Below, one piece after another: positions 11,038 to 16,425 of a stretch of 26,695 nt of DNA. The stretch's first letter is position 1. Every line of letters starts with the position of its first letter. The stretch lies in the IMG/VR virus record IMGVR_UViG_3300049185_000045, positions 1-26,695 of that record; one strand, 5' to 3'. Origin of the DNA: a virus (taxonomy: Duplodnaviria; Caudoviricetes). Below the pieces are notes generated by a model that worked only from the letters and a program-made list of their open reading frames with translations, did not search any database and was not told the DNA's origin. A program made the position numbers and the translations under genes.

Positions 11038-11934
11038 TCACTTCACCGGCCGTCTGCGCTCGCCGCGGGTGTACACCACTCGCATTTGCCCCATGTGGCC
11101 GATTACGTTGCGATCTGGGGCGTCCGTCTGCGCCTTCGGGCGTAGCTGCCGGAATTGGAAGCCCGGCTGTAATCGCCTCATAGCGCTTTGCAGGCCCCAC
11201 TCCGACCACGGCAAACCGCGGGGCGAGGTGAACAGGAACTCACTGCCACGCGATAGAGCTCGGCCGATGAAGAACGCCAGCGTCTGGCTGATCTCGTACT
11301 CGGCCGGCTTGCCTGTCTTGCTCTCGACGAACACCAGGCGATCGCCACGAACCGCGGTGCGTTTCATCGCTCGAAGGTCGGTCTGACGGATACCAGTCAG
11401 GTAGGCAACCGCCAACAAGTCCTGAACACATTCCGGCGCTCGATCAATGGCAGCAGAGAGTGCTCCATGTTCGACATACGCCTTACTCGGGCGCTCTCTG
11501 TTTCGACGTACTCCATGACACGGGTTGAAGTCCAGCCATCCTTTTCGCATACCGAAATTACAAGCACTCGATAAGCATGCTCGTTCACGGTTGCCAGCCA
11601 CGGCGCAGCCTTCGTCCTTCCGTCGTTCGAGATACTGGGCGACATGTGAAGCCTTCAGCGAGTTGCGGTGCATGTGACCACAGAAGGGAATCAGGCGCGT
11701 GACCACGATCCGCCGATAGTCCTTCTGCGTCGGGGGCCGAAGCTCGGCCATCCCGTGTTTGACGAACGATAGAAGCACGCCTGCCATGTTGTGCGGGTCT
11801 GCCTTGGTCAGCTCATAGTAGGCTTCGAGGAGCGCAACTTCGCCGTCCTCGATGCGCGTGAGCGGATGCCACTTGTTGCGCCGGACGACGTAGTAGCGGC
11901 CGTGCTTCGCTGTGACCCCTGGCGGGAGTTGCAT
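11038..11934 (-). CDS. int: Tyrosine integrase
   Basis: TGIRQTDL (R), ESKTG (K), FRQLR, IGH, VY; next to the tRNA-derived attP. Confidence 0.92.
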   Translation of the reverse strand: MQLPPGVTAKHGRYYVVRRNKWHPLTRIEDGEVALLEAYYELTKADPHNMAGVLLSFVKHGMAELRPPTQKDYRRIVVTRLIPFCGHMHRNSLKASHVAQYLERRKDEGCAVAGNRERACLSSACNFGMRKGWLDFNPCHGVRRNRERPSKAYVEHGALSAAIDRAPECVQDLLAVAYLTGIRQTDLRAMKRTAVRGDRLVFVESKTGKPAEYEISQTLAFFIGRALSRGSEFLFTSPRGLPWSEWGLQSAMRRLQPGFQFRQLRPKAQTDAPDRNVIGHMGQMRVVYTRGERRRPVK

Positions 11935-12116
11935 GCGGAGAAGTCCGGTTGTAGTTCTGGGCCCAAGAGTGCCCGATTGATCGCATCGATGGTAGTCCAG
12001 GGACTGCCGTCAGCCCCGACGCCGTGAACGATCTTGTTTTCGTCCAGCCACTGGCGCACCGCAAGCCTTGACTTGCGGCGGCTCATCTCTCGCAACTGGT
12101 CGAATTGGACGATCAT
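11808..12116 (-). CDS. Excisionase-like protein (DUF4224-like)
   Basis: QLREMSRRKSRLAVRQWLDENKI...GADGSP...QPDFSA upstream of int; its tail overlaps int by 127 nt. Confidence 0.65.
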   Translation of the reverse strand: MIVQFDQLREMSRRKSRLAVRQWLDENKIVHGVGADGSPWTTIDAINRALLGPELQPDFSACNSRQGSQRSTAATTSSGATSGIRSRASRTAKLRSSKPTMS

Positions 12117-13188: not shown

Positions 13189-13554
13189 CTAGAAGTTGTG
13201 CTTTGTGTAGTCGAACTCGATCCGCGTCACGACCGATGTCGGCCTGCAGCCCTTGTGCGACTTGCAGAAGAACTCGATAAACCAGTCCGGCGACATCAGC
13301 GGGAATCCTTCGCGCGCAACTTCGTCGATAGTGATCGCGTCAAGCGGTTCGCGCCGAACGTCCACAACCTCAATGACGCAAAGCTTCTCAAGCTTCTCTC
13401 CTGGCTTTAGGCCCATGCACTTCTTGACCGCCTGGACGCGCTCGCCACGCTTCAGGTTCAACCAGCCGAGCCGGCGAGTGACCGTCTTTTCTCTCGCGAG
13501 AATCTGCGGCGTGGTCAGTGCGAAACTCATATTGCGCATGGGGTAACTCTTCAA
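13189..13554 (-). CDS. ASCH/PUA-like domain protein
   Basis: MSFALT..QI...KTVTRRLGW, 'DVRREPLDAIT.DEVAREGF', 'VTRIEF'; alternative start 13539. Confidence 0.8.
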   Translation of the reverse strand: MKSYPMRNMSFALTTPQILAREKTVTRRLGWLNLKRGERVQAVKKCMGLKPGEKLEKLCVIEVVDVRREPLDAITIDEVAREGFPLMSPDWFIEFFCKSHKGCRPTSVVTRIEFDYTKHNF

Positions 13555-14183
13555 CTATGCGAAGCTCTTGATTGCTTTCGCGACGAGCTGCGCCGCGTTC
13601 GGGACGACAGCGTTGCCGAGGGCATGCCTTCGGTGTGGCCAGTCGGGAAGCCCATCATCCGCTCCCAATCCTCTGGGTGCTGAATCCCACGCGACTGCAA
13701 GCTCATCCGCCATCTGCCGACCCTCCCGGCTCCACCACCGCGACAGCTCCCGTAGGCGCTGGCAGTCGGAGTGGGCAACAAGGAAGATGCGTCTGCGGAG
13801 GTGCCGCGCGCCAACGTCAGCGGCGGACAATTGAAGCGGCACGCTGGCATACCCGATGGCATGCAAGCAGCGCCGCAGCTCGGGCACCCATGCGCGCCAG
13901 CGATGCTGGCTGTTCTCAACAACCACCCAGTCAGGACGTACATCAGCGAGCTCTGCGAGCCGGTGAGGCCGGTCCGCTTGCCAGCTACCGACAAGTCCTG
14001 ACACGGGAAGCCCGCTGAGATCACGAGCGTCTGCGTACGCAGGTACTCGAGGCCAGTGTCGGCCGAGCACGGCTCTGCATCCTGCGTCGATCTCAACGAA
14101 GGCGACCGGCTCGATTCCTTCTCGCTCGAATCCAACGGTGAATCCTCCGACGCCAGTGAATAGATCGATGTGGAACATGTCAT
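13551..14183 (-). CDS. C5 DNA methyltransferase, chain B in overlapping +1 frame (motifs IV-V, IX)
   Basis: SAGFPCQDLSVAGKRTGLTGSQSSL, LLPTPTAS, HPEDWERMMGFP; ATG 14183 is ATGA-coupled to the upstream ORF. Confidence 0.7.
   Translation of the reverse strand: MTCSTSIYSLASEDSPLDSSEKESSRSPSLRSTQDAEPCSADTGLEYLRTQTLVISAGFPCQDLSVAGKRTGLTGSQSSLMYVLTGWLLRTASIAGAHGCPSCGAACMPSGMPACRFNCPPLTLARGTSADASSLLPTPTASAYGSCRGGGAGRVGRWRMSLQSRGIQHPEDWERMMGFPTGHTEGMPSATLSSRTRRSSSRKQSRASHS
13555..14178 (-). CDS. C5 DNA methyltransferase, chain A (motifs I-III, VI-VIII, X; lacks PCQ)
   Basis: DLFTGVGGF, FVEID, YAD, VVVENS, GY, HLRRRIF, ALGNAVVP. Confidence 0.85.
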   Translation of the reverse strand: MFHIDLFTGVGGFTVGFEREGIEPVAFVEIDAGCRAVLGRHWPRVPAYADARDLSGLPVSGLVGSWQADRPHRLAELADVRPDWVVVENSQHRWRAWVPELRRCLHAIGYASVPLQLSAADVGARHLRRRIFLVAHSDCQRLRELSRWWSREGRQMADELAVAWDSAPRGLGADDGLPDWPHRRHALGNAVVPNAAQLVAKAIKSFA

Positions 14184-14278
14184 CGACGCAGAGCGATACA
14201 AAGCCACGCGGTCCAGTACCAGCGGTGCTCGTGATGCCGAAGGCACGACCAGCAGATTTTGATGCGGCGCTTAGTCAC
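14180..14278 (-). CDS. 32-aa peptide (not in ORF track)
   Basis: MTKRRIKICWSCLRHHEHRWYWTAWLCIALRR; GTGA and ATGA overlaps at its two ends. Confidence 0.5.
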   Translation of the reverse strand: MTKRRIKICWSCLRHHEHRWYWTAWLCIALRR

Positions 14279-15006: not shown

Positions 15007-15105
15007 TCACTCTCCCAGAGCGGTTCTCTGTAGCTTTCCGCATGCGAAGCAAATCTCGCGATGCCAGAGCCATTCTTTGCAGTACCTGCAGGTCCCGCAG
15101 CTCAT
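15007..15105 (-). CDS. 32-aa Cys-rich peptide (not in ORF track)
   Basis: MSCGTCRYCKEWLWHREICFACGKLQRTALGE; ATGA overlap with MT-A70 stop. Confidence 0.45.
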   Translation of the reverse strand: MSCGTCRYCKEWLWHREICFACGKLQRTALGE

Positions 15106-15641
15106 GCCACCATCTCCACGTCGGATGCAACTTCATTGCCCCATGAATGCCAGCCAAGACGACGCTGGCGAGCGAAAAGCTCCAGCCGAGGTCCTGCAGA
15201 TATACTTTCGATCAACCGGAAAGACTCGGTTGGTTTCTCGCTGTGCCGAAGTGGCCTGCCGCCAGTGACCAAGACGTTCGGCTTGTAGCGCTCAAGAGGA
15301 AACACGCACCGGGAGCGGTATCCGAACAGGAGCGTCTGGCTCCGATGAATGAACCAATTGCCCTGGCCAGACGGCTTGATCCAGTGAATCGGCGCGAGAT
15401 ACCGAAATCCCCACGACCGCATCACCTGGAAGCCGTGTTCGAGGTGTTGGTTCGTGGTCCACAGCCACAGGTGGCAGTCACTGTCGGCGAGATCAGCGAC
15501 TGGGAGCGCACAGATACGATCGAGGCTCATAGTTGGATACGGCAGCGTAGGACCGCCGAAGCCTCCCTTAGCTCGCCGCCGCGGCCGGCCGAGCGATAGC
15601 TGCCACGGTGGATCGGCGAGGATGGTGCGGTACTTGTTCAC
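15102..15641 (-). CDS. MT-A70 family adenine methyltransferase
   Basis: YRTILADPPW, YPTMS, LWLWTTN, WGF.Y, HSEKP, RLELFAR...GW..WGNE; GTG 15641 coupled start. Confidence 0.92.
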   Translation of the reverse strand: MNKYRTILADPPWQLSLGRPRRRAKGGFGGPTLPYPTMSLDRICALPVADLADSDCHLWLWTTNQHLEHGFQVMRSWGFRYLAPIHWIKPSGQGNWFIHRSQTLLFGYRSRCVFPLERYKPNVLVTGGRPLRHSEKPTESFRLIESISAGPRLELFARQRRLGWHSWGNEVASDVEMVA

Positions 15642-15718
15642 AACAGCGCCTTGGCGATCCCGCACCAAAGCAGGAACCAAACCATCAGCGCAAAGGCGTC
15701 TATGAGCTTCTGTTTCAT
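15638..15718 (-). CDS. 26-aa membrane peptide (not in ORF track)
   Basis: MKQKLIDAFALMVWFLLWCGIAKALL; ATGA and GTGA coupling. Confidence 0.5.
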   Translation of the reverse strand: MKQKLIDAFALMVWFLLWCGIAKALL

Positions 15719-16425
15719 AGGCCATCGCACTTCGTTAGAGCGCTACGCAGCGCTTTGATCTCGTCGTCGATTGGCCCCCAATACCGTCCGCCTGAAGCCT
15801 CGATCTCGAACCGACCTTCGTAGGCATCCAGCACGGCGTGAACCGCAACAATCAGCTTGTCCAGGTCCCGCTGCGGAACGGTGACGCTGACAGGTCCTGG
15901 CGGTTGGGCTAGTCGCTGCTCATGGCAGCGGTGACAGACGTTCACGGCAAGCGGCCCCCATGTGTGTCCTTCCTTGGAGCACAGGTCGCGGTTGAGCTGT
16001 CGAACGTCAACCGCCGGTTCGGACGGCATGTAGCTCGCTACATATGTCCCAGCGGGAGAAACCTCACTGTATCTTGGCGGAAGTGCGTCACGCGGTCCGG
16101 TCCAAAATCGACCAGTCTCATCGTGCTGCGCGATGACTGCGTATTCAGTGTGAGCCGCCGGCGGTTCGTGACGTGAGTGCCACTGGTCTTTGCACGACTG
16201 CGTCGACTCGCCGAAATCGTTCGTCGGATGCCTGTGCGGCTCAGGAGACTTGCACGTGGGGCACGAGCTGATCTGCTCCAATGCCAGCGCGCACACTTCT
16301 GCCTCTTCGTTGTTCAGCTCGACGCGGCCAATGGGTGGGCGGTCGGCGCATGCAATCTGCGAGCGCAAGAAGCGCGCAAGGACCTGCATTCGCTCTTTCG
16401 ATGGCGCTTGAGTAGGGTCGCTCAT
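15715..16425 (-). CDS. Mosaic hypothetical protein
   Basis: ATGA-coupled start at 16425; short segments separated by EPP/QPP linkers. Confidence 0.6.
   Translation of the reverse strand: MSDPTQAPSKERMQVLARFLRSQIACADRPPIGRVELNNEEAEVCALALEQISSCPTCKSPEPHRHPTNDFGESTQSCKDQWHSRHEPPAAHTEYAVIAQHDETGRFWTGPRDALPPRYSEVSPAGTYVASYMPSEPAVDVRQLNRDLCSKEGHTWGPLAVNVCHRCHEQRLAQPPGPVSVTVPQRDLDKLIVAVHAVLDAYEGRFEIEASGGRYWGPIDDEIKALRSALTKCDGL

Follow-up and report, generated by a model that had tools for sequence, protein, structure and literature searches.

The stretch of DNA analysed here (the window, positions 1-26695, 26,695 nt) is a partial temperate phage genome found in soil metagenomes, and its minus strand carries a C5 DNA methyltransferase gene with the conserved motifs divided between two overlapping reading frames. 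An ORF check places chain A at 14178-13555 (207 aa) and chain B, in the +1 frame, at 14183-13551 (210 aa), confirming the coordinates, strand and relative frame given in an earlier note made from the letters of this DNA. The catalytic Cys lies in one frame, the cofactor pocket and the other catalytic residues lie in the other, and this layout has been kept, suggesting that the active site is likely to be drawn from two chains. We consider it probable, judging from the sequence comparisons below, that the products form a heterodimer resembling M.EcoHK31I, with an active site completed in trans.

The gene follows a 32-aa ORF (14180-14278, minus strand), whose GTG at 14278 overlaps the previous stop and whose TGA (14182-14180) overlaps the ATG of B and lies 1 nt before the ATG of A; from this arrangement, the ORF is likely to couple translation of the downstream frames. 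Chain A (13555-14178), as delineated by Pfam matches, alignment and structural modeling, holds motifs I-III, a linker, and motifs VI-VIII and X, and is devoid of PCQ. Its motif I (FTGVGG, 14143-14160) includes Gly-Gly codons reading GGAGGA (14148-14143). Residues 55-72 (13963-14016), in which motifs IV-V are read out of frame, form a linker predicted to be disordered on the grounds of pLDDT and identity, and are followed by motif VI (ENS, with Glu88 and Asn89, 13909-13917), motif VIII (HLRRR, with His126, Arg128 and Arg130, 13789-13803) and motif X (GNAVVP, 13600-13617). Chain B (13551-14183), comprising 210 aa if read from the ATG at 14183 or 194 aa from the TTG at 14135, contains in order motifs IV-V, a helix, a four-Cys cluster, a candidate recognition segment and motif IX. 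A hydrophobic strand (B53-58, LVISAG, 14010-14027), encoded by the same bases as the end of motif III of A, precedes the Pro-Cys-Gln of motif IV (13998-14006), in which the codon of the catalytic Cys61 is TGT at 14003-14001. The motif names were checked against Pfam and PDB alignments, with motif VII being putative. Positions 3-46 of the Pfam DNA_methylase profile are matched by A and 64-92 by B, the B profile aligns with M.HhaI 70-105 (E 4.5e-08), and motif IX of B (PEDWERMMGFP, 13644-13676) aligns weakly both with DNMT3A 233-257 (E 0.0025 for the whole sequence) and with M.HhaI 270-294. The Pfam and PDB alignments thus agree with the division proposed in the earlier note, namely an A without PCQ and a B with IV-V and IX. 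Taken as a whole, the gene displays the features of the C5 DNA methyltransferases (PF00145), including motifs I, II and X, the PC of motif IV (in frame B), motif VI, the RxR of motif VIII and the fold of A; the catalytic motifs are not all on one chain, as they are in single-chain members of PF00145.

The layout is real and conserved; that it does not result from an assembly error is confirmed by contigs from three soil assemblies (runs X1, X2 and X3) that cross both junctions with zero differences and zero gaps; X1 and X2 are possible sources of the window, X3 is not marked as a source, and all three are assembled contigs and not raw reads. Four more runs cover parts of the gene indel-free and no indel is listed in any of the 8 runs, so that in these contigs the check for indels proposed in the earlier note recovers none that restores PCQ to frame A. 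When the protein of A was kept constant and its codons were re-drawn, the share of trials with an open +1 frame was 1.65% in the window and 0-4.5% in each of 10 related loci. It is actually open in 11/11 loci (the window and the 10), which are kin and not 11 independent trials, such that these counts and the Fisher value given below overstate independence.

The 10 related loci (L084-L093) were recovered as distinct hits in scans of viral sequences, and share the frame layout with 48-72% identity to A. A profile search with A, of which the best 120 of 5605 proteins were examined (two of the 120 being the window's own), showed that PCQ is absent from 119 of these, with the remaining one, P0103, being an in-frame relative. 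In an alignment of 114 of the 120, from which P0103, a fragment from the window and four long proteins were excluded, pairwise identity ranges from 41 to 95% (median 55%), E29, E88, N89, H126, R128, R130, G188 and N189 are invariant (114/114), and G9, G11 and G12 of motif I are found in 113/114. In 111 of the 114 rows, against a background of 1.0%, the position 30 residues ahead of the Glu holds the tripeptide that a PCQ in the +1 frame requires, and two further rows fit the trace of such a PCQ given a one-residue insertion. The third residue of motif VI is V in 63/114 and S in 11/114; the window has S, and ENS also occurs in the in-frame relatives P0256 and P0257. In the corresponding search with B (best 120 of 5513 proteins examined), 67 matches have PC(Q/P) without motif I and 28 have motif I without PC(Q/P), with the others being second-frame-only, partial or ordinary. 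The B alignment comprises 61 proteins chosen for PCQ, such that this selection accounts in part for the invariance of PCQ therein. Those omitted include P0126, with the Cys replaced by Tyr, and P0184, which has lost GFP; they show that some copies are decayed or miscalled, and both points count against the trans heterodimer. The close homologues keep PCQ in the +1 frame, and the 10 phage loci have both frames open. On the two computational points that the earlier note had raised against its own interpretation, namely indels and homologues with PCQ in frame A, the outcome therefore supports that interpretation.

In the databases the A matches are named as plain methyltransferases and the B matches as hypothetical. 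Among cultured phages, tblastn recovered 57 distant records for A, with the top rows at about 30% identity, no match for B and no close relative of the gene. No member with the split layout was found in the scanned parts of the metagenomes (1/64) and genomes (3/64), a result with no bearing on cellular genomes. A subclass including L091, L092 and most of P0080-P0121 has lost a further 27 nt, which removes motif III from A; its spacing from motif I to the Glu is 72, compared with 81, and another subclass has 78. P0237 and P0245 switch frame at the second junction from B to A, and P0200 from A to B; these switches may represent errors, decay or a third swap, and such shifts within single proteins are a further point against the trans heterodimer. 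Two remnants of the family were also detected, one with motifs I-II joined to X and the middle deleted (L234:1977-2241) and one consisting of the middle piece only (L106:1180-1314).

Comparison of the 11 loci points to constraint on both products. Over motifs IV-V amino-acid identity is 0.69 in frame B versus 0.41 in frame A, and base differences fall on the wobble position of B (0.52, versus 0.30 and 0.24). Over motifs I-III and X, the differences concentrate on the wobble position of A (0.55 and 0.58), and in the region of B136-162, between motifs VIII and IX, identity is 0.89 in B versus 0.63 in A. From motif IV to IX there are zero stops in A or B and 50 in the third frame. As shown by these substitution patterns, both frames are under selection, which over motifs IV-V acts on frame B and from motif VIII to IX mainly on that frame as well.

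From the motif I Phe codon to the Cys codon there are 157 nt, and from there to the motif VI Glu codon 86 nt; most of the in-frame relatives (n=91) have 64-65 codons (median 65) for the first distance and 38 (median 38) for the second. As the spacings are shorter than in the in-frame relatives, about 35-38 nt and 28 nt are missing, which together amount to whole codons; the shortened distance from Cys to Glu recorded in the earlier note (about 29 codons versus 38 in M.HhaI) is recovered here as 86 nt against the median of 38 codons. The model of A (pLDDT 79.8) has M.HhaI as its best structural match (Z 17.2, rmsd 2.8, 183 aligned), and its residues 55-72 have a pLDDT under 50, with no strand where IV-V belongs. 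Thus, A alone is predicted to fold as the large domain of a C5-methyltransferase with a disordered gap at IV-V. The motif IV strand normally occupies the middle of the sheet. In chain B, positions 53, 54 and 55 preceding PCQ are hydrophobic in 85, 97 and 100% of the 61 proteins. We propose that B53-58 would take the position left vacant in the sheet of A by the absent motif IV strand, and that its insertion would bring Cys61 to Glu88, Arg128 and Arg130. B modeled alone yields a mean pLDDT of 57.3 and a pTM of 0.25, and this poor standalone model is a point against the heterodimer.

The segment B76-90 (13914-13958), a low-confidence predicted amphipathic helix overlapping the motif VI strand of A, would on this proposal stand in for the helix lost between motifs V and VI. 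Its positions 80, 82, 84, 85, 87 and 88 are hydrophobic in 100, 97, 100, 90, 90 and 99% of 68 window-type proteins, and the same six positions are hydrophobic in 19, 35, 35, 23, 77 and 23% of 26 relatives of a class with motifs I and IX on one chain (described below); the pattern is mostly absent also in 9 second-frame-only relatives. As the pattern is near fixed in the window-type layout and mostly absent in others, the helix is likely to have arisen with this layout. B76-90 lies on the bases of A74-89, and its conserved part, B80-88, on those of A78-87, the strand before ENx, which accords with the earlier claim that the missing structural pieces are dual-coded on shared bases. The gene is likely to have originated from a dual-frame gene of the M.EcoHK31I type through the loss of about 35-38 nt at one place and 28 nt at another, which moved IV-V from one chain to the other.

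The proposed heterodimer entails that B would be made from its own start, either a TTG behind a Shine-Dalgarno site that lies within motif I or an ATG beside the start of A. The earlier note had placed both starts in ATGACATG at the upstream stop: this junction is present in the sequence, but it is not the start used across the family. At the window ATGs of A and B, duplex energies of +0.3 and +0.9 kcal/mol indicate that neither has a Shine-Dalgarno site, and 7/11 loci have no ATG upstream of the Cys in the B frame. A TTG 25 nt downstream of the Phe codon of motif I is present in 8/11 loci versus 59/246 control genes, which are motif I pattern matches from the metagenome (1/64 parts) and genome (3/64 parts) scans. 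GGAGG from the motif I Gly-Gly codons precedes the TTG in 6 of the 8, and TTG with GGAGG occurs in 18/246 controls; in the window, the TTG (14133-14135) lies 7 nt past GGAGGA. The anti-Shine-Dalgarno pairing is -8.4 or stronger at 7/8 TTGs. The three loci without the TTG instead have an ATG 4 nt after the start of A with a strong Shine-Dalgarno site, their pairing being -5.0 to -5.5 at the place of the TTG and -8.1 to -9.8 at the ATG. One or the other, TTG(+25) or ATG(-14/-23), is present in 11/11 loci versus 91/246 controls (Fisher 2.7e-5, the loci being related). In L090 no start codon other than this TTG occurs from the upstream stop to the Cys, and in L086 a stop immediately precedes it. 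The Cys is residue 45 in 18, 36 in 6 and 58 in 15 of the 61 called B proteins, numbers which imply that the called starts often coincide with the predicted position. The B frame is open from +25 to the strand in 11/11 loci, with 3.8 expected; against an own start, the +1 frame near the 5' end is also open in 85/127 GC-rich controls. On these sequence features, the conserved start of B is likely to be the TTG at 14135, with its Shine-Dalgarno site in the motif I Gly-Gly codons, and the window offers both this and the stop-coupled ATG at 14183. A single base differs between the window and L090 over 14178-14183, moving the stop-coupled ATG from frame A to B, and the N-terminus of B in the window is common to P0123 and P0125.

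Several other explanations were weighed against the heterodimer. An assembly error or a lone decayed copy has nothing in its favor and can be given hardly any credence in the face of identical, gap-free contigs in three runs and the recurrence of the frame layout in 10 other phage contigs and >100 protein clusters. It is unlikely that both chains are produced and associate with DNA or with one another while the complex, or the window allele, no longer methylates or performs another cytosine chemistry. The deletion of 63 nt of the core, the loss of 27 more together with motif III in the subclass mentioned above (36/114 rows are gapped at A49-51) and the window's ENS instead of ENV speak for such a loss or change, and the last of these, given ENV in 63 of 114, is also a point against the trans heterodimer. 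Opposed to it are the retention of the Cys, the Glu, both Arg, the motif I glycines and the GN of motif X across 41-95% identity and the fixation of PCQ in the second frame.

Two further alternatives invoke ribosomal shifting, for which the available text of PMC3711429 gives as criterion a conserved shift site of at least 7 nt at the frame transition. No such site was found at the transitions in the 11 loci, with the best 7-mers present in 6-7/11 and explained by conserved codons. A single programmed +1 shift fusing motifs I-III of A to IV-V-IX of B, with the fusion pairing with full-length A, is quite unlikely. It would account for the 7/11 loci that lack an ATG upstream of the Cys in B, and fusions of I-III to the second frame form a natural class (26 proteins and L226); yet a start codon with a ribosome-binding site occurs at one of two fixed places in a complementary pattern in 11/11 loci, B is open from +25 to the strand throughout, and no 7-mer upstream of the Cys is common to more than 6/11 loci. 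A double programmed frameshift, from A to B and back, which would rebuild a shortened large chain with B supplying motif IX, is highly improbable. In its favor, the two deletions sum to whole codons and P0237 and P0245 have IV-V joined to VI-X, but a single chain cannot read both the B helix (80-88) and the A strand (84-87); that both are conserved on shared bases argues against it. Moreover, no slippery heptamer is common between the Cys and ENx, where the best 7-mers (7/11) are codons of DLS, and the spacings would be 52 and 29 codons as opposed to 64-65 and 38. The earlier note's judgement that a double frameshift fits poorly therefore holds. As for the heterodimer with its active site completed in trans, it counts against it that the accessible portions of PMC3404938 describe no split, whether natural or engineered, that sets a central strand of the large domain apart, and report the best complementation for cuts between motif VIII and the recognition domain; in its favor, M.EcoHK31I offers in the accessible text of PMC2836561 a precedent for two chains from overlapping frames.

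B100-119 (13827-13886), delineated by Cys conservation and a pLDDT of about 90, has the pattern CxxC-x11-CxxxC; the third and fourth Cys are kept in 110 of 113 proteins having the first Cys pair, and over the four Cys the xTG codons confine A to V, L or M. This cluster is a candidate zinc site. B136-162 (LPTPTAS...GRVGRWRMSL, 13698-13778) is the most conserved stretch and a candidate target-recognition segment. The region from PTPT to motif IX is replaced or lengthened in P0215, P0217, P0221, P0187 and P0188, and the P0215 segment resembles the second frame of the in-frame relative L002, a likeness which suggests that specificity segments might have been exchanged.

The other genes of the window include tail genes, an endolysin, an integrase with an excisionase (11038-12116), an exonuclease VIII-like gene, a repressor and a primase-helicase; no RNA data set is listed for the window sequence. 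A second methyltransferase of the MT-A70 family (15102-15725, minus strand; Pfam E 1.7e-26) lies 0.9 kb upstream on the same strand, and an ASCH-like ORF (13189-13554, minus strand; Pfam E 0.00065, below the cut-off) lies directly downstream and is not a conserved neighbor. There is no conserved neighbor or adjacent restriction endonuclease among 129/134 same-strand ORFs of the 10 loci and 23 other ORFs of the window. HNH genes occur within 2 kb in 3/10 loci, with none adjacent, and integrases are found near the gene in 3 loci and in the window. The default role of a solitary phage methyltransferase is to guard phage DNA from host restriction, and the gene would probably act in this capacity. 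CTAG and GGCC are the most depleted words in the window, and do not identify a target.

If active, the gene would encode a C5 methyltransferase with its Cys on a different chain from the Glu, Arg and SAM pocket, a split absent from the literature examined. We found no description of a PCQ in a second frame in a search that lay outside most subscription journals, REBASE and supplements, and the terms searched brought up no mention of such a gene in the accessible parts of PMC3711429 and PMC12707154. We also favor, with somewhat more reserve than the heterodimer itself, the view that the nucleophile and central strand of an enzyme have come from an overprinted chain, that a helix and a start are new in the alternative frame, that a frameshift can act as a motif-swapping crossover, and that phages hold at least three layouts with no, one and two swaps. 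As both frames would be translated, we infer that a frameshift exchanges segments between chains, and can thus rearrange an enzyme rather than kill it. The gene would be an example from nature of how overprinting, with selection on both frames, gives rise to a helix and a start signal, for which the in-frame relatives serve as controls. As gene callers usually report one frame, such genes look like dead, Cys-less methylases, and calls of this kind would lead to phage methylation capacity being misjudged. Designs for targeted methylation, in which background activity of the parts is a known problem according to the available text of PMC2836561, could likewise profit from an active site that is strictly two-part.

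Across all retrieved loci, 118 genes were classified by layout; the M.EcoHK31I layout accounts for 42 of these, the window layout for 10 (one of them mislabelled by the pattern) and a one-swap layout for 2, with 54 being unscorable for IX. L226 is a further one-swap gene outside these 2. The one-swap class, with motifs I and IX on one chain and IV-VIII and X on the other, includes L226:2010-2773, L024:886-1910, L109:1865-2773 and 26 proteins (most of P0195-P0229, P0254 and P0259), and we found no published name for it. L024 and L109 look like separate lineages, and a Met encoded over the motif II codons occupies one shared position in L226, P0254 and P0259. In a tree of the second-frame region that these genes share, built from 95 rows (with 26 others skipped) and 98 columns and with unsettled bootstrap, like layouts group together, with 5 changes versus 26.6 when shuffled; as the tree cannot order the layouts, we claim no order of swap events. 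Derivation of the window class from the one-swap class simply by one more deletion is ruled out by frame arithmetic (PCQ in +1 versus +2). In L089 (1214-2651), an ordinary M.EcoHK31I-type gene lies directly upstream of the window-type gene, and the two have identical last 12 residues and similar beginnings, as after tandem duplication or insertion.

Like the window type, the one-swap class is a dual-frame gene with a frame swap between III and IV, and the C-terminal region of the second frame of L226 is the same as that of the window type. In this class, however, motifs I-III run into a second frame ending in IX, and IV-VIII and X are in the +2 frame; it has a single swap, keeps the Cys, Glu and Arg together, would start its second chain in +2 and lacks the new helix. 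The single-chain enzymes typified by M.HhaI (PF00145) share with the window gene the fold of A, the match of B to residues 70-105 and the catalytic residues, but have all ten motifs on one chain and 38 residues from Cys to Glu, as opposed to 86 nt across two frames. M.AquI, a natural two-chain enzyme with one cut in the variable region (I-VIII / IX-X) according to the accessible portions of PMC3404938, retains the motif order and the catalytic core on one chain, whereas the window motifs alternate between chains four times. A single split of this type between VIII and IX-X is not seen in the window gene, where X is on A and IV-V on B. In M.EcoHK31I (YGGCCR), the available texts of PMC2836561 and PMC3404938 assign I-VIII and X to the alpha chain and only IX to the beta chain, in agreement with what the earlier note had stated of that chain. 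As in the window gene, the second chain lies wholly inside the first gene in another frame and carries IX, and I-III, VI-VIII and X are on the first. In these sources, however, the alpha chain has the catalytic Cys, Glu and Arg together and the predicted recognition region, whereas in the window type IV-V are on the second chain and conservation points to a candidate recognition segment on B. Each window chain is about 200 aa long, a new helix is present in B together with a putative start of its own inside motif I, and no conserved restriction enzyme partner was found for the type. As the gene departs from the motif split that defines the M.EcoHK31I type, we place it outside that type, although the two are probably alike in their way of working.
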